A stretch of DNA of 61,095 nt, the filler included. It is 14 parts of 14 records of this genome, joined end to end, with 100 filler letters (N's around TTAATTAATTAA, not from the genome) between each part and the next. Parts side by side here need not be neighbours in the genome. Positions count along the whole stretch, not along the records: positions 34,610 to 38,815 come from SRR7504441_20228; 13 more parts are not named here. One strand, 5' to 3'. Of the stretch, positions 5,371 through 56,899 are shown piece by piece (the stretch's first letter is position 1; each line of letters opens with the position of its first letter). The position numbers and the translations under genes are program-made. The notes beneath the pieces are model-generated. The model did no database searches. It was not told the origin of the DNA and was given only the letters and a program-made list of their open reading frames with translations.

Positions 5371-5470
5371 NNNNNNNNNNNNNNNNNNNNNNNNNNNNNN
5401 NNNNNNNNNNNNNNTTAATTAATTAANNNNNNNNNNNNNNNNNNNNNNNNNNNNNNNNNNNNNNNNNNNN
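5371..5470. other. Artificial contig spacer; the same type occurs at 9142, 13167, 17628, 23799, 27163, 30785, 34510, 38816, 42116, 47102, 52205 and 56765 (each 100 bp)
   Basis: N-run + TTAATTAATTAA (stops in all six frames) + N-run. Confidence 0.99.
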
Positions 5471-9005: not shown

Positions 9006-9646
9006 GCTATAGCCGGCTACGGCTGGTTGTGCACATATCGGACTCGGTGCCCTCGCGTCAATGACGCCGCCATCACAGCCAGCGTCGCGTGGTGCGGAGA
9101 AGCGGGTCGGCGGTGCCGCATAGCGCAGACCCTGGAATGCGNNNNNNNNNNNNNNNNNNNNNNNNNNNNNNNNNNNNNNNNNNNNTTAATTAATTAANNN
9201 NNNNNNNNNNNNNNNNNNNNNNNNNNNNNNNNNNNNNNNNNAGCCCCGAGGCCGGCCGGTTAATGTAGTTCTACTATTCTAGACTGTTGGTTACTGTTGG
9301 TTAAGGATAGCCTAGACATGTTTAAAATTTTCAATTTGCTATTACATGTAATTTTATATCAACTAGTTACGTACATGTACATGTAAAAGTTTGCATCGTC
9401 ACATGATCATATCATCATGTACGTAAATGTTTCGAGTAAGAAATTCAAAATAGACTTATCAACTAGCTAGTACTCTGAAGTACTCTAAACTCCCCTCAAC
9501 AAAATATTAACGAATTACATGTATCAATACTTCGGAACCACTGATGGTGCGTAGATGGAAAGTTTTACTTCAATCAATCAATTCTTTTGGCAAAACTTCT
9601 CTTGCAGTCAGCCCAAACTAATTTGTATCATTTGTAAAAGTGCTTG

Positions 9647-13268: not shown

Positions 13269-15334
13269 TCACGCTAAGCTTACACGCTTTAGATCTGATT
13301 GCCCAAAGCGACCACGCTTAATGACACTAATACATTCTTTCTCAGCGCCAGGGGCTGCTCTCTTCTTTGCGACCTTATCGTCGTGTACTGGCCTCCGATT
13401 CAGCGAGCAAGTGCAACTGAATGGCCGTGGGCACTTTTTGAGCTGCCCGTGGTGAGGTTGGGTGAGCCCGCTGTGCGCATAGAACACCGTCGAGATCCGA
13501 TTGGGCGCCGCCAAGTTTGGGCTGTGCTGCCTCGAATTCGCATGTAGCAGCTCCCGCGCATTCATCAAAACCATGCTGCCGCTCGGAAGCTTGAGTGACA
13601 CACCTGCTCCAAGGCTCACTGCAGTCACGGCCGCTGGATGCAGCCTCACCAGGTGTCTCCGCGCCATCAGCTAGGATATCCAACAGCATGTACCGCGACA
13701 TGTCTGCCTCAGTGCACAGCACGCACATGGCAGCCGCTGCCCCTGCCATGTCACTGGAATCCCTGTGTGGGTGGGTCGCGTGGTCGATATTCACTTCGCA
13801 TGCCGCAAACAGGCTCGCAAAGTGCCCCGGAAAACGGCAGTCAGCCCCTTGAATGCTCGCAGCCCTTAGTACGTCTGCAGCCCCTTTGGCAACAGCACAC
13901 ATCTTCTGCCCAGCCAGCTGCCAGCCAGTCAGACCCTCTCCGCTGGGCACGCGCACCTCGGCTAGCTTAAGCACAGTCTGCACAAGATCAGCCTGCACCT
14001 CTGGCGGCACTGAATCTGGCAGCGGCATGCTCGGGCCTTTGTGCCCAAATCTGGACATGATACAGCCAAACCTAAAGCCGGCGCCAGCAGTGGCCGGATT
14101 GGGGCCCTGGCACACGCTGCAATGAGCCGACTGCTCAGCGGCCTGCTGGCGCCGGCTCAGCACTTGCTGGAGCGTGGGTGGCTCATCTGGCTGGACTGGA
14201 CTGGCAGGAGGGGCGGGCGTCGCAGGCTCTTCCGTATCATTGGTCAGGCCAGCGGTGCACAGATGACACAGGTAGTCGGAGTCGGCCGAGACCCGGGTGC
14301 GGGTGTGCCTCTGATGGCGCCAGGCACACTCTGTATGCGACCAGCGCAGGCAGCGGGAGCACTCGACCATCTCCTGCCCATCGTCCAGGCCCACACCTGA
14401 CAGGCCACAGGCACAGTCGACCACCCAGTCCTTTGAGGGGAGCAGCAGCTTGACTCCACCCGGCAGCGGCATTTCGGGGCTCTGACAGTAGCGGATGAGC
14501 CGTCTGCGGGTGGCGTTGGCCTCGATCAGCTTGGCTAGATCTATCCCGTGCGCCTCGGCCACCTGTGCCATGCTGCTGCTCGCCCCCCGCGGCACCTCGT
14601 GTACCTCCAGCCCGGTCAGGCCCTTTGCATAGGCCAGCACACCTCACAGCCGTCAGCTGCGGTGTCCGGAGGGATCAGCAGCTCCGTCGCCCGCCTGAGA
14701 AGCACGTCCAGACTGCAGCAGCAATCAGGCCAGCCCCGAGCCTTGAGTGCCTGAGCCCAGCCAGTCGCGGCTTGTTCATCGCCAGCACCAGCATCGGGTC
14801 GATCGCCAGCCGTTTGGCCACGCTGCGCACCGTCTCGTCCTCCTCGCACAGGTATGTCGGGCGCTCCGGGCCCAACTCCTCCTCCGACGGCACAGCCGGC
14901 AGCAGCTCAGTGCCCATCAGATATGCCCGTGAGCAGCCCCGGTGGCGGGCCGTCCCATGGCTGCCCAGCTGGGCCAGGCTGCCCATCGCGGCCGCCGCTT
15001 CCTGCCCCGGCAGGGCCTCCCATAGCACCACGCAGACCGCCGCCCACACCCCGCCGGGCAGCTCACAGCAGAGCACAGTGGCCGGGGCATCAGCCCGGGA
15101 GAGCTCAGTGCAAAGCTCGAGCAGCAGGTCCAGGTCGCACTGGCCCAGCTCGCCGGCCCGGTCCTCGATCTTGGCCAGACGCCGGGCCTCGGCCTGCTTT
15201 CGGCCCAGCACCGACACCGGCACGCAGCTCACCGCCAGCCCTCCCAGCCCGGTGCGCACCGCCTCGGCCAGCGCCTCCATGCTGGACGCGCTCGCGAGCC
15301 CCCAGGCAGGCAGCGGGAGCGGTTCGCCTTCCAT
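13269..15334 (-). CDS. TET/JBP-family 2OG-Fe(II) dioxygenase (animal-TET-like) fused to two LysM-like domains and a PHD finger
   Basis: CSVCQGPNPATAGAGFRFGC, HPHRD (HxD, 13759-13767), ELLHANS (His 13542-13544), NRISTVFYAH..LTQPHHG; PHD DCACG..DDGQEMVECSRCLRWSHTEC..YLCHLC; introns 14713-14750, 14605-14642, 13918-13956, 13604-13649. Confidence 0.85.
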
Positions 15335-15402
15335 TGATCCGCCCAGCCTCCCGCCACAAGCCGTTAGATTCGGTTGACCCCGCTCGGCGGCGAGGCAGCA
15401 GT

Positions 15403-16216
15403 TTGAGGACACTGGCGTGGCGGGCGTTCGACCAGCTGACGCGGCGTCGGCCGCTTCTGGTCAAGTGCACGGCAGGTCAGGCCGGGGGCCGGTGTCTGGC
15501 TGGAGGGGCCCGCAGGCGGGATCCTGGCCGGGCTGGGCGACCTGGGCGCCCAGTGGCTCGAGCAGCGCGGCACCGGCCGGTTCGAGCCGGACCCGCGGCG
15601 GCTGGGCGCGCTGGTGCTCTGGCGGGTCAGCTTCCACACCCCGGTGGTGCACGTGTGGTGGGCGCCGCCCCGGTCCCAGCCAACGCCCCGGCCCAGGTTC
15701 AACACGCTGGATCGGTTCGTGACCGGCACCGGCTGGGCATCCGTGGCAAAGAAGATAGCAATGGACCAGCTGCTGCTCTCGCCTGCAGTACACAGCTTCT
15801 TCTTCCCATACATGGCGCTGGCCGAAGGTGCCCGCTCCAACCTCGGGCGCCCGATGGCTGCGCCGCAGGTAGGACGGCCGCCGAGGGTCTGGAGCGGTTT
15901 CAACTCAACTTTGTGTCGCTGATGAGCACGAGCTATTGCTTCTGGCCGGCAGTGCACACTGTCACCTTTACGAGTGTGCCCCTGCATCACAGGTGCCTGG
16001 CTCGATGGTACAAGACTCAGCAACGCGTGCAGGGTGATGTTTGTCAATGTGTGCTCGATGGTGTGGATGGGGATCCTCTCGCACTACAATCAATCAGCTA
16101 CTAAAAAGTCGAAAAGCTTGGACAGTGCAGCCGACCGAGCCAACACTCTGTCTGATGATGACAATGGGTACTCCAATGAGGTTGAACCTAAGTGCGTGAC
16201 GGATGCATCTAGCTAG
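15403..16216 (+). CDS. Mpv17/PMP22-family membrane protein, 4 introns; start codon unclear
   Basis: AWRAFDQLTRRRPLLVKCTAG|GILAGLGDLGAQ, KKIAMDQLLLSP, FWPAVHTVTFTSVPLHHR|VMFVN. Confidence 0.85.
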
Positions 16217-34360: not shown

Positions 34361-34723
34361 GGACTTGTGTCCATTCCGTTGTATTTTGAGCTGGTGTCCG
34401 TTGTTCGGTCAGTTCAATCCAAAGGTCTGTAGATTTCGAAGGTCTGCCATCTCGCTGGCCGGGTCAGTAAGCGGGCGCAGCGGGTGGGCGTGCGGCCGAT
34501 AGTGGCCCGNNNNNNNNNNNNNNNNNNNNNNNNNNNNNNNNNNNNNNNNNNNNTTAATTAATTAANNNNNNNNNNNNNNNNNNNNNNNNNNNNNNNNNNN
34601 NNNNNNNNNAGGGCCCCGACTTTCTAATAAATGTACTTAGATGCATATAACCACCCTAAGGGTGTCTAGATAGTCTAGCCAACAGGTCAACAAGGCCGCA
34701 CCTGTACATTTCAACTCTTTCGC

Positions 34724-36992
34724 TTATGAGGCGGCAGTCGAGTTGGTTGCGAGCCCTTTCTTCTTGAGCATGAATTCGATAACTGGATCCCGACCGCGGA
34801 ACTTTCGGAACAGCTCAGCCGGGTCCTCTGAGTTGCCTGCCGAGTAAATGTGCTTCCTACACGCTTTTGCGGTCTCTGGGTCGAATATATTGCCAGTCTC
34901 TTTGAAGGCCTCGAACGCATCTGCATCCAGCACCTCCGCCCACAGATACACGTAGTACCCAGCAGCGTAGTGTGAGCTCGAGAACAAGTGCTGGAAATGG
35001 GCTGGCCGGTGCCGCATCACAATCCCTTGAGGCATCCCAAGCCTAGCCAGTTCGGTCTCCTCAAAGGTAGCCAGGTCAAACCCGCTAAAGTCCGTTGTCA
35101 GGTGCATACCCATATCAAGCAGCGCGCAGGCCGTGTACTGCCACCGCAGCTAGTCAGCGCTCAGGCAGAATAAGTGTTATCGGCAGCTGCACAAGCTGTA
35201 CCTCGATTGTAGCAAATCCTTGGTTAAACTCTTGGGCCGCTTTGAGCTTCTTGATCAGCTCGTCGGGGACCGGCTCGCCAGTTTGGTGGTGCAGCGCAAA
35301 CTCCTCAAGAACCTCGGGTTGCTCCAGCCAATGCTCCATTAGCTGCGACGGCAGTTCCACAAAGTCGGTTAGCACGTTGGTGCCTGCGAGCCTGGCGTAG
35401 GTGCAATCGGATAACATGCCGTGATGTCCGTGGCCCATCTCGTGGAAGAGCGTGCTGGCGTCGTCGAACGAGAGCAAGGTCGGATCCCCGCGCGCGAAGT
35501 TATTGTTGTTGCTGATGATTGGGATCTTGAGGATCTCAGGTTGATCGGGTGAAAGGTTCTTTGTCTGTCCTCGGTACTCTGCCACACAAGACATCGTCAG
35601 AGTGCCGGAGCTGCAGGCAGGCTGACCTGACATCCAGGCCCCGGAGGACTTGAACGGCCGGGCAAAGTTGTCCGAAATGAAGATTGCCACTGTCTGGCCG
35701 TTCTCCTTGACTTGATACGCCTTAGCATCAGGGTGGTACAGCTGGATGTCTGGCCGAGGCACGTACTCCAGCCCATAAAGCCTGTTGGATACGGCCATCA
35801 CCGCCCGCGTGACGTTCTCGAGGGTGAGATACGGCTGTCACCCGCAGCCAGTCAGCGCTAGAATGAGTGTCATTAGCAGCTTAGGTGGGTGTACCTTGAG
35901 CAGTGACTCGTCAAAGTCGTATCGCGCCTTCCGGACCTTCTCTGCATAGTAGCGCCAGTCCCAGGGCATGATCCCTCCCTCGAGCTCCACCCCCTCGCTC
36001 TTCACATACTCTTCGAGCGCCGCCCTCTCCCGATCAGCAGACACTTTCGCCTTTGCCCACACTTGCTCCAGCAGATCCATCACAGCCTTTGGCTCTTTCG
36101 CCATCATGTCTTCGCACTGGTAGTGCCCAAAGCTTTCCTTCTCGTGCAGTTTTGCCTGCTCGTGCCGCAGCGCCAGTGCCTCCTGAGCCAGCGGGAGGTT
36201 CGCCCTAGCCGACTCTAGCTCGCCGCGCTTTGTCCAGCCGGCCCAGGCCTTCTCACGCAGGTCCCTTCGATCGGCGAACGTCAGGAACGGTTCGACGATC
36301 GACCGACTCAGCGTGATCACATGAATATCCGGCGCCGGCCGCTTCTGGCCGGCCGCCTTCTCTTCGGCCGCAGTGCGCGCTGCAGCGACCAGGCCTTCGG
36401 GGCAGCCGGCCAGGTCGCCAGCCTCCAACGAGAGCGGCATCTGCCATTCCTCTTCGTCCGCCATCACGTTCTGCGAGAAGGCCGTCTGGATCTCGGCCAA
36501 CCTGGCCATGATCCGTGCGTTCTCGGCCTGCTTCTTGGTGTCAAACTTTGCCCCGTGTCTGCAGAAGTCGGTATAAAGCCGCTCGGTGAGCCGGATCTGC
36601 TCCGGCCCGAGCCCGGCCCGGTTGGCGTGGACCCGCTCGATCTTGGGGAACAGCCCGGCCAGCGTGTAGTACCGGCTGGTGTGCCCGGCCAGCAGTGGGG
36701 CCATCTCGGTCTGAACCGCCTGCATCGGCTCGGTGTTGAGGCTGGAGCATAGGTTGGAGAATACCAGCGAGATCTTGGAGAGCTGGCCACCTGCCCGGTC
36801 CAGCGCAGCTATCACATTGTCAAACCCCGGCTCCGCGGTGTCGTCCACGATCGCCTGGAGCTCGTTCAGCTCTTGGGCCATCGCAGCATCGAAGCCGGGC
36901 CGGAAGTGGCTTGGCTCGATCCGCGCGAAGGGAGGCATCCCGAATTCGGGATCGGAGACCGTCCAGTCCTCGAGCAGCGGGTTGGTGCTCAT
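34724..36992 (-). CDS. M3A metallopeptidase (peptidyl-dipeptidase Dcp / oligopeptidase A-like), 3 introns
   Basis: NPLL, PWDWRYYAEKVR, TLFHEMGHGHH (HExxH), DFVELPSQLMEHW, YAAGYYVYLWAEVLDAD; introns 35835-35894, 35579-35626, 35138-35201. Confidence 0.92.
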
Positions 36993-37106
36993 CCTGCAGC
37001 GCTGAGAGAACACTGAAGCCCGGGCGGTGAGCCGAAGCAAAAGCCGAGCAATGACGGATGCCGAGCTGATGAGTCCGAGCAATTCCGTTACTCAGCGGGC
37101 ACGGGG

Positions 37107-38628
37107 ATGAGAAGAGAAACCCCGATGCGGGTGTGCGCGCAGTGCGGCCAGGCCTTCGGCACGCCGCTGGCCGCACGGGCGCACTCGGCCGAGTGCCGCC
37201 CGGACCCGATGGAGCTGGTCCTGCAGGCCGAGGTCGAGCTCCGGCAGGACCGGCCGGCCCGGGCCCTCGAGCAGACCACCGGCGCGCTCCGGATCGCCCC
37301 GCGGCTCGGCCGGGCCTGGCTGCGGCGGAGCCAGGCGCTCCGGCGACTCGGGCGGTGGGCGGACGGGCTGGCGGCTGTGGAGGAGGGTGAGCGGTGCGGC
37401 GAGTCCCAGGCTATCCGGCTGGAGCGGCAGGCGGTGGAAGAGGGCCTGGCGGCGGTGCTCGAGGCTGTGTCGGGGCTGCTCTCCGGGGGAGGATCGTGCC
37501 TGGCTCAGATGGCCGAGATCGATCCGACCAATCTGACAGCCCGGGTGCAGCTAGCAGCGGCCGACCAGCAGCGGGCTGCGAGCCGGGTCGCGCTGGAGGA
37601 TACTAAGCGGGAGCTGCTTGACTGCAGGGAGCTGGACCGGGCGGACCGGGCGGGGCAGGCACTCGGGCCTCTGGAGCGCCGCCAGCTGAATATACCGCTC
37701 GGAACCGGGCCGAGTAGGGCGGCGCTCGGGGCGCTGCTGCACAGGGCACTGGCGGAGTGCCATGCCGGGCTGGGCGAGAAGGAGGCCGGCGCGGAGGCGA
37801 TGGCCGCAGCCTGCCGGCTCAAGCCGGCTGACCGCGACCTGTGGCAGCGCAGCCTGGAGCTGGCAGGGCAGCTGGATGGCCAGCAGGCCGAGCAGGTGCT
37901 CAGAGAGGCTGTTGAGCTGGGCGTCTGGCCAAGCGCGATGCAGCGGCCGACTCAGTTCGTGCCCGGGCTCACGGCCCGCGCTTGGCATGACTGCGCCCAG
38001 CAGCCAGTCGCTCAGGCGCTCGAAGCCGGGTATAGCGCAGTCAAGCAAGAGCTGCTCACGTTGCTCGGACGGTCGGACGCCTTCGGGGTGTACGATTCAG
38101 TCGCTGTGACCAGTGGCGAGTGGAGCGACGTGACTTTTATTCTAAACGGCAAGGTCGACGGCCCAAACTGCGCCCGGTGCCCGTTGACGGCCGGCCTGTT
38201 GCTCCAGCCGGCAGTTCGTGAGGCCGCCACCAGCTGTGTGCTCGGGTCGGCGTACCTCTCCAAGCTGGCGCCCGGCACACACCTGGCTGCGCACTGTGGG
38301 CCTACCAACGCCAGGCTGCGCTGCCACCTAGGGCTGATTGTGCCGGCCGGGTGCTCTATTCGGGTCGGGCGGGAGTGCAGGACGTGGCGCGAGGGTGAGT
38401 GCATTCTGTTTGATGATAGCTTTGAGCATGAGGTGTGGCATCGAGGCGACTCGGACAGGGTGCTTGTAGTTGTATGCTTTGAGTGCTCATTGTGGACAGG
38501 TCGTGCTCATTGTGGACATCTGGCACCCGGGCCTGATCGGGCGCGAGGCCCGGGCGGCGGCAATCCAAGATCCACACTTAAAAGCGCGGTACGAGGCCAT
38601 TTGCCGAAGTGATCGCTTGCTCGGGTGA
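37107..38628 (+). CDS. TPR-containing aspartyl/asparaginyl beta-hydroxylase-like dioxygenase
   Basis: SKLAPGTHLAAHCGPTNARLRCHLGL, WREGECILFDDSFEHEVWH, R|VVLIVDIWHP after intron 38460-38499. Confidence 0.9.
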
Positions 38629-39235
38629 GAGAGCTGCACTTTTGATCAATCAAAACTAAAACCCCTACGAGCAAGTTGTAATCTTATAGCACCAGTAATC
38701 GTATACAACTAAAAACTAAAAACCAAAGCTTGTTCAAGAGGGCATGGAGCTTGTCGGGATGCAGAGTGGATGCATCTGCTGCACTCTGAGGGGCGACCTC
38801 TTGAAAAGTGTCAAGNNNNNNNNNNNNNNNNNNNNNNNNNNNNNNNNNNNNNNNNNNNNTTAATTAATTAANNNNNNNNNNNNNNNNNNNNNNNNNNNNN
38901 NNNNNNNNNNNNNNNTCGATGCCAGCTGGCGTGGACGCCCGCTTGATTTACTGTTTCGCGAGTGTGTACTTTCGACTCCCGTCGCGTCCCGTCATCCCGT
39001 CATGACATTATGAGACTTTCAAAGTGCAAGCTTCAGCCTGATCCCGGTCCGGCGTGGCGTCTTTTGCTCCATCTTCGCCCGAAGTTATTGCATGTGAGCC
39101 ATTGCAAAGCCTGGCATCGTATGTGAGCGGGACGACAGTTCACGTCGAGTCGAGTCTCACAGAGCAAACTCCTGCACAATGCCCTGCTGCCGCAGTGCCG
39201 CCCTGTGTCTGCTATAGTAACATGCCGCGCTGGTG

Positions 39236-56581: not shown

Positions 56582-56899
56582 CCGGTTCAGTACTCGTAAA
56601 GTACTGTACGAGTAAGATAGTTTTTAGCGTTTAGTTGATGCGTCAATCTCTCGAGAGATACTTTGTCTTCATGTGATTAAGAATACGTACGCTTACAAAA
56701 ATGAAAATGTTTGCATGAAATCAGGAATGCGAACTCGGATGCGCTGACCGTTGCGCCACGCAGANNNNNNNNNNNNNNNNNNNNNNNNNNNNNNNNNNNN
56801 NNNNNNNNTTAATTAATTAANNNNNNNNNNNNNNNNNNNNNNNNNNNNNNNNNNNNNNNNNNNNTCCATGTAATTAGTATTTCTTGTGGATTCCGTCTC

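Follow-up and report, generated by a model that had tools for sequence, protein, structure and literature searches.

Two similar introns at unrelated sites of a peptidase gene from a marine planktonic eukaryote, possibly related by local copying

A predicted peptidase gene and its three introns

We analysed a 61,095-base window of DNA and describe here two introns of similar sequence, i1 and i3, that interrupt one predicted peptidase gene at unrelated positions. The window consists of 14 contig pieces of 3.2-6.1 kilobases (kb), with GC contents of 0.556-0.675, and has no chromosomal continuity: the pieces are separated by 13 linkers (5371-5470, 9142-9241 and so on to 56765-56864), each made of N44, a 12-base stop in all frames and N44, and any adjacency across a linker is artificial. 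Both introns sit on the piece at 34610-38815, and all statements about other copies cover the 61 kb window only.

The peptidase coding sequence runs from 36992 to 34724 on the minus strand, with an ATG at 36992, a TAA stop at 34726-34724 and three GT-AG introns. Once the three introns are taken out, the four remaining segments (36992-35895, 35834-35627, 35578-35202 and 35137-34724) form a clean frame of 2,097 bases, that is 698 codons and a stop. Exon 1 (35895-36992) supplies 366 codons from the ATG, exon 2 (35627-35834) 208 nucleotides (nt), exon 3 (35202-35578) 377 nt with the HEMGH zinc motif, and exon 4 (34724-35137) 414 nt including the TAA stop, all on the minus strand. The product is predicted to be a Dcp-type peptidyl-dipeptidase of the M3 family. 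Peptidase_M3 (PF01432) matches in every exon (profile positions 3-129, 131-203, 215-325 and 330-456 of 457), and its positions continue over the junctions (129/131, 203/215 and 325/330).

The first intron, i1 (35835-35894, minus strand), is 60 nt long, lies in phase 0 between the LLK and PYL codons and carries an in-frame TGA. The second, i2 (35579-35626, minus strand), has 48 nt and falls in phase 1 within the E codon of WMS-E-YRG, while i3 (35138-35201, minus strand) has 64 nt, lies in phase 0 between the TIE and YTA codons and shifts the frame. In an alignment with six full-length homologues, the exons meet exactly at all three sites, with neither a gap nor an overlap between them (LLK/PYL, WMS-E-YRG and TIE/YTA). 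U2-type intron features (GT...AG, with the frame and a homologous protein restored by removal) are present in all three introns, and a CTGAC branch-like motif is found 17-21 nt from the 3' end in i1 and i3. An earlier note on this DNA was right on the coordinates, strand and lengths of the introns, and its statement that i1 and i3 interrupt unrelated codons of the M3 peptidase agrees with both the PF01432 matches and the alignment of the six homologues.

The sequencing runs that hold parts of the peptidase gene are seawater or marine metagenomes and metatranscriptomes. At the protein level the peptidase is 65-73% identical to unnamed marine sequences, about 55% to diatoms, about 52% to green algae and about 48-50% to bacterial Dcp, and the proteins closest to an ABC1 kinase on a neighbouring contig are from dinoflagellates (42-44%). 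Because the gene-bearing runs are marine and the nearest named homologues belong to diatoms and dinoflagellates, the host is an uncultured marine planktonic eukaryote. The peptidase ATG (36992, minus strand) stands head to head with a plus-strand open reading frame (ORF) that is open from 37017 and contains an Asp/Arg beta-hydroxylase domain (PF05118 at residues 337-487); in this region, 36992-37120, the two frames are 24 bases apart.

To look at splicing, contigs of four runs were aligned to the gene piece, and their cover reached i3 only. In a contig of metatranscriptome X1 (381 letters, 3 of 352 differing), 35137 is followed directly by 35202, so that exactly the 64 bases of i3 are missing; the short side of this junction measures 29 letters, just below the aligner's own bar of 31. 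A contig of 190 letters from the polyA metatranscriptome X4, which belongs to a different study from X1, fits 34964-35139 without difference and continues for 14 loose letters past 35139; 13 of these 14 match the opening bases of exon 3, on the far side of i3. Run X2, probably DNA, has a contig that aligns to 34962-35164 and thereby extends 27 bases into i3. The third intron is present in DNA (X2 being probably DNA) and is removed from RNA. No intron-only contig was seen among the pieces listed, where the cover of this organism is thin, and this has no bearing on copy number. Record 17 of run X3, a contig of 432 letters, aligns to 34822-35096 and, on the opposite strand, to 34642-34794; it is probably an assembly chimera.

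Likeness of the first and third introns

Aligned with each other, i1 and i3 are identical at 46 of 59 ungapped columns (78%). The alignment has 65 columns in total, with one 5-nt and one 1-nt gap, and is returned identically by a scripted global aligner and by MAFFT; the count of about 46 in 59 that the earlier note had made by hand was exact. Transitions account for 8 of the 13 mismatches, among them all 6 from column 14 onward, as had been said of the core. The identity is spread unevenly: 7 of the 8 columns from 6 to 13 differ, whereas the part after them, beginning at column 14, agrees at 40 of 46 aligned positions (87%). Two conserved blocks on the minus strand fall in this part. An 18-nt block that includes CTGAC (35842-35859 in i1, with its counterpart at 35144-35161 in i3) is identical at 17 of 18 positions, and a 22-nt block (35860-35881 in i1, 35167-35188 in i3) is identical at 18 of 22 positions, its 4 differences being all transitions; the 22-nt block holds a 5-bp mini-hairpin.

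In the global alignment the likeness extends from GT to AG, where nt 1-5 and the last 3 nt match, and a local profile alignment of the two introns spans model positions 14-57 of 60. Measured by the boundary used in the introner survey of PMC9860276 (at most 5 exonic or at most 10 intronic bases), the likeness reaches the 3' side and is borderline on the 5' side. In the exons, 4 of 5 upstream bases agree (TCAAG versus TCGAG), and there is no agreement among the downstream bases. No exon repeat beyond 5 nt was found around i1 and i3 and the flanking codons are unrelated, so that the homologue alignment and the repeat check of the surroundings both bear out the view that the flanking exons are unduplicated. 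The two introns have the same orientation, are both in phase 0 and lie 693 nt apart in one gene.

One explanation for this likeness is chance, swollen by common splice signals and base composition. Signal-like letters (GTACA, CTGAC and CAG) do make up 13 of the 46 matches. We compared the pair with 20,000 shuffles that left the CTGAC block and the terminal nucleotides (6 at the 5' end, 3 at the 3' end) of both introns in place, a comparison with shuffled pairs that the earlier note had proposed, and none of them reached the observed score of 27 (mean 5.1, standard deviation 3.5, maximum 19.5; z 6.3). A sequence-only covariance model made from i1 alone and applied unfiltered to the two strands of the window (122 kb; its E-values are rough, its bit scores are not) finds i3 at 23.9 bits (E 2.3e-6), while the runner-up among 23 hits at E<=10 has 6.9 bits. 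Because all other introns of the window are in the background of this search, the likeness is not general to the introns of this genome, and i2, which has the same kinds of signal, scores nothing.

Scans of the window for the two blocks with up to 3 mismatches gave a similar picture. The 22-nt block has two matches, in i1 and i3, versus 0.01 expected (two matches in 0 of 100 shuffles), and the 18-nt block has two matches, again in i1 and i3, versus 0.31 expected (two matches in 5 of 100 shuffles). The likeness of i1 and i3 exceeds chance, and we hold a chance origin to be very improbable. A heuristic intron finder, based on codon log-odds and GT..AG, returned 77 candidate clusters with no coherent splice consensus; it was not trusted and was not used as a null.

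The earlier note had also raised i2 as a possible third homologue, from the blocks TGCAGCT, CACT, CTGAC and GTGGCAG. This did not hold up, the blocks being no better than background in profile searches. The second intron is absent from the hits at E<=10 of the i1 model (23 hits) and of a model made from i1 and i3 together (33 hits), and a model of i2 only finds 52 places at E<=10. All of these lie outside i1 and i3, and unrelated places score up to 10.3 bits. Raw global scores are 5.5 for i1 with i2 and 14.0 for i2 with i3, and i2 was judged by the profile searches instead. We conclude that i2 appears to be unrelated to the other two introns.

Further copies, element marks and relatives

The pair may have a wider origin: i1 and i3 could be two decayed members of a genome-wide introner family, moving as DNA or RNA, which landed here twice by chance or through a local hopping preference and whose other members lie outside the 61 kb. 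We regard this as possible, with a probability clearly below that of the local copying discussed further on. The host is marine and planktonic, and a survey found introners several times as often in aquatic species (39 of 230) as in others (35 of 1,367; Gozashti et al. 2022, PMC9860276). According to the same source, the median length of introner families starts at 30 nt, ocean metagenome-assembled genomes contain single members of 64-77 nt, and some lack terminal inverted repeats (TIR) and target-site duplications (TSD), so short families and members of this kind are on record. As far as introners of Micromonas, Aureococcus, dinoflagellates and ocean metagenome-assembled genomes are described there, i1 and i3 resemble them in their non-homologous sites, end-to-end similarity, marine protist host and a size within range; they differ in being only two known copies, both in one gene.

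A third copy was not found in the window by blastn-short, by profile searches with i1 and with i1 and i3 together, or by the two motif scans allowing 3 mismatches. The combined model gives 62.3 and 56.7 bits for i1 and i3 and 8.7 bits for the next place in the window, and the group of introns that share the likeness therefore counts 2 members within 61,095 bases, both in one gene. For comparison, the survey keeps families of at least 4 introns and reports families of 5 to more than 2,000 copies (PMC9860276). The absence of a third copy in the window, with the sequence searched falling short of four introns, speaks against an introner family.

One partial match to the 22-nt block, at 13319-13348 (plus strand), was considered and set aside as probably due to chance, having 6.2 bits (E 0.89) and no GT..AG shape. 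It consists of a 10-base exact run with two short insertions, one of them where i3 has its 5-nt insertion, and lies in AT-richer sequence 52 bases from a contig start. Outside the window, exact scans found neither the long two-block pattern nor the 22-nt block in a viral contig collection or a prokaryotic genome contig collection. The 18-nt block had 3 viral hits, which we attribute to chance, with no extension past the 18-mer under the combined model. That the scans gave only these three non-extending 18-mers is a further point against an introner family, of little weight since such collections are an unlikely home for copies.

The sampled genes of the window look intron-poor, and the three introns in the 3' half of the peptidase gene look conspicuous among them. 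Elsewhere in the window, most of the Pfam domains detected in long ORFs fall complete within a single ORF (Exo_endo_phos 1-225 of 225, Asp_Arg_Hydrox 2-153 of 157, adh_short 2-190 of 195 and ABC1 6-233 of 244), and another contig has a GH2-like ORF of 1,127 codons. A match to Mpv17 (profile 3-48 of 62, at 14755-16104) comes from a gene that may be split.

We found no terminal inverted repeat or target-site duplication common to i1 and i3, which share only the obligatory AG. The earlier remark that no clear TIR or TSD could be seen is right at the level of a family; i3 has marks of its own that are without counterpart in i1. These are two terminal segments that form an imperfect inverted pair (12 of 17; 35135-35151 and 35185-35201) and a GTAC both at the 5' end and over the 3' junction (G/TAC), which gives a 5-base direct repeat GTACA. 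Neither intron folds more stably than its shuffles: i1 reaches -17.4 kcal/mol (z -1.50), with 14 of 200 shuffles at least as stable, and i3 reaches -18.0 kcal/mol (z +0.58), with 144 of 200 at least as stable. The lack of shared TIR or TSD and of a stable fold counts against an introner family, as does a divergence of 22% with no sign of recent activity.

It is conceivable, if improbable, that the two introns are independent in origin and were made alike later, either by ectopic gene conversion over columns 14-65 or by selection for a shared functional element such as a small RNA or a hairpin that controls splicing. Such later homogenisation would fit the contrast between the unrelated columns 6-13 and the 87% identity of the rest, but gene conversion requires prior similarity to begin. 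In favour of a shared element, a 5-bp hairpin with a CAC loop is found in both introns (35862-35874 and 35169-35181, minus strand; alignment columns 21-33), and 3 of the 6 substitutions in the similar part fall in this hairpin and preserve its pairing, including one exchange of G-C for A-U. This covariation is equalled in 259 of 500 shuffles and, coming from two sequences only, has no statistical weight. The consensus fold of the two introns is weak (-5.85 kcal/mol), no Rfam family was found over 35000-36000 at E<=10, and i2 of the same gene has none of the element. At 60 and 64 nt the introns are also too short for a typical intron-borne small nucleolar RNA beside the splice signals. An intron-borne small RNA was rejected as a candidate, there being no Rfam match and the C/D-box-like letters noticed by eye being a misfit to the consensus in both copies.

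The relatives of the gene were read from proteins called on contigs rather than from DNA, where partly spliced RNA would look alike. Four relatives with 65-73% protein identity (P0244, P0337, P0242 and P0343) are uninterrupted through the i1 site (DFDE..LKPY), and the i2 site is likewise uninterrupted in P0244, P0242 and P0343. A fifth, P0243, breaks ten residues ahead of the i1 site and is uninformative there. The same four depart from the family elsewhere in an intron-like manner, and three of the departures begin with valine (a GTN codon). In P0244, on a contig of 5,930 bases, 28 extra residues separate DNFA from RQYKSSG, and the protein stops just past HEMGH; the departures are after HPDVQ in P0337 (4,039-base contig), after RLAG in P0242 (2,559-base contig) and after EYRGQ in P0343 (1,621-base contig, from the species of P0001). 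Two of the relatives' contigs are longer than the mRNA and are therefore genomic; the shorter ones may be partly spliced RNA. The i1 site thus looks empty in the nearest available, if distant, lineages, and i1 looks young or lineage-specific.

Taking P0242, P0243, P0244, P0337, P0343 and P0241 together, the Dcp ORF breaks after AEKVRQ, HPDVQ, DNFA, EYRGQ, HEMGH, RLAG and YQTGD. These protein calls suggest a fast turnover of intron positions in the Dcp gene across the clade, and the intron-like breaks at a different place in each relative are a point in favour of an introner family. The i3 site is read through by L001, P0001, P0273, P0342 and P0347, all of which may be transcripts. A metagenome scan for orthologous loci gave 45 loci, of which only L001 is close (67% identity); it is a record of 2,273 nt with one uninterrupted ORF of 706 codons and short untranslated ends, transcript-like and hence uninformative on introns. 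The remaining loci, which look bacterial, either match the full length of the query at 34-44% identity or match it only in short parts. Presence and absence at orthologous positions, which the earlier note had put forward as a check, could accordingly be followed in part: the i1 site reads as empty in four relatives by protein calls, and the i3 site is seen only in possible transcripts.

Local copying and its place among known intron gains

The origin of new spliceosomal introns is debated. Transposon-like introners explain bursts of intron gain, and a copy made by reverse splicing is a textbook idea for which clean cases are very few. Our preferred reading, to which we give roughly even odds (about 0.5), is that i1 and i3 are genuine spliceosomal introns, paralogous to each other, and that one of them was copied locally, without exon duplication, to another phase-0 site in this gene, one that ends in AG. 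That one intron was copied had been proposed before, and it accords with a likeness far above chance that runs from GT to AG between unrelated exons. As to the choice left between an introner-like element and local copying, local copying fits better, and with 2 copies and no stable fold the introner-like label is unearned.

We prefer local copying because there are only two copies, 693 nt apart in one gene and in one orientation, with none other in 61 kb, and because the pair has no shared transposon marks, an ordinary size (near that of i2, the only intron available for comparison) and no special fold. A sparse dispersed family would rarely strike one gene twice, and an abundant family should show elsewhere in the window, which argues for a local event. 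The data show that the two introns are homologous with exact boundaries between unrelated exons, that i3 is spliced and that the window has no other copy; the direction of copying, the route through RNA or DNA and the absence of copies from the rest of the genome are things that we infer.

Under local copying, a pre-existing intron would have been copied exactly from GT to AG into a second site 693 nt away in the same orientation. Since the copy would have carried both splice sites and the branch site with it, it could be spliced at once with the frame kept. Most likely this would have gone through RNA, the excised intron reverse-splicing into the other site of its own transcript, followed by reverse transcription and recombination of the cDNA with the gene. 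Alternatively, a DNA break may have been repaired with the nearby intron serving as the template for filler sequence, and the shared TC-R-AG may have primed this repair. Within local copying we lean somewhat towards the RNA route over the DNA route. After the copying, 13 substitutions in 59 aligned positions and two insertions or deletions would have accumulated.

Several points weigh against local copying. Neither route predicts the difference at 7 of the 8 columns from 6 to 13, which calls for partial copying or for replacement of this part afterwards. Compared with the "near-identical" fungal pairs, i1 and i3, at 78% identity, are older and further diverged. The search covered 61 kb of the genome, with which a low-copy dispersed family would be compatible. 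As spliced introns, i1 and i2 are predictions of the gene model, which matters here for i1, and the apparent absence of i1 from relatives comes from protein calls, which would look the same on contigs of partly spliced RNA. Parent and daughter are indistinguishable, because no genomic-looking relative covers the i3 site. A 2012 review describes reverse splicing into a new site as undemonstrated in living cells and the support for the reverse-splicing model as only indirect (PMC3443670).

Local copying has its closest parallel in fungi. Near-identical pairs of same-gene duplicated introns have been reported from 24 fungal genomes (Collemare, van der Burgt and de Wit 2013, PMC3609843). Half of these introns are without exon duplication, and the authors suggest that they may have arisen by transposition of an intron within a single transcript (PMC3609843). 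As those pairs are characterised in that paper, they share with i1 and i3 the occurrence of similar introns within one gene, the unduplicated exons, and an ordinary length and folding energy. Within the window i1 and i3 have the form of such a pair without exon duplication, at 78% identity rather than near identity; they differ further in that the host is not a fungus by its closest homologues and in that their confinement to one gene holds for 61 kb. The 2012 review counted 14 events of intron transposition (PMC3443670).

Other known intron gains are less close. The introner-like elements of fungi occur in hundreds of copies, are about twice the length of regular introns and have a stable fold (PMC3609843 and PMC3514964, citing van der Burgt et al. 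2012). By these accounts they are, like i1 and i3, spliceosomal introns with canonical signals and without TIR or TSD, and reverse splicing has been proposed for them, but neither the high copy number nor the stable fold is seen here. In Mycosphaerella (Torriani et al. 2011) and Oikopleura (Denoeud et al. 2010), recently gained introns resemble other introns, which is described as indirect evidence for reverse splicing (PMC3443670, PMC3514964). The evidence there is presence or absence between populations or species, whereas here it consists of protein-level hints from distant relatives. Sister introns within one gene form a rare class that is already known, introners are well documented in marine protists, and i1 and i3 are an old, diverged case. 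In the literature found, no title or abstract opening describes same-gene intron duplicates in marine protists, and we do not claim that there are none.

A bolder proposal, which we consider unlikely, is that this marine protist carries a short intron-generating element of about 60 nt, without TIR or TSD, that spreads as RNA by reverse splicing and prefers its own transcript, in a clade whose Dcp genes have their introns at lineage-specific places; i1 and i3 would be the part of it that is in view. In the broad survey the ascomycete fungi are given as the outlier that lacks DNA-transposon signatures among introners (PMC9860276). A short element without TIR or TSD, if real, would be an introner of the RNA route outside the ascomycete fungi.

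The pair also touches on how introners are searched for. The survey dropped intron pairs with similar host proteins (PMC9860276). By our own reasoning rather than by the authors' statement, this filter would also drop pairs within one gene. The host exons of i1 and i3 are non-paralogous, with unrelated codons at the two sites, and a one-gene pair of this kind is a case outside the design of the published filter. If a survey filters by similarity of host proteins, same-gene pairs may escape it, a possible blind spot.

Diverged sister introns with exact boundaries, unrelated exons and no transposon marks are the footprint that the intron-copying model predicts. The introns i1 and i3 would be a small and old example of it, in a marine protist rather than a fungus. 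They bring no new principle, and their value is that of a test case.

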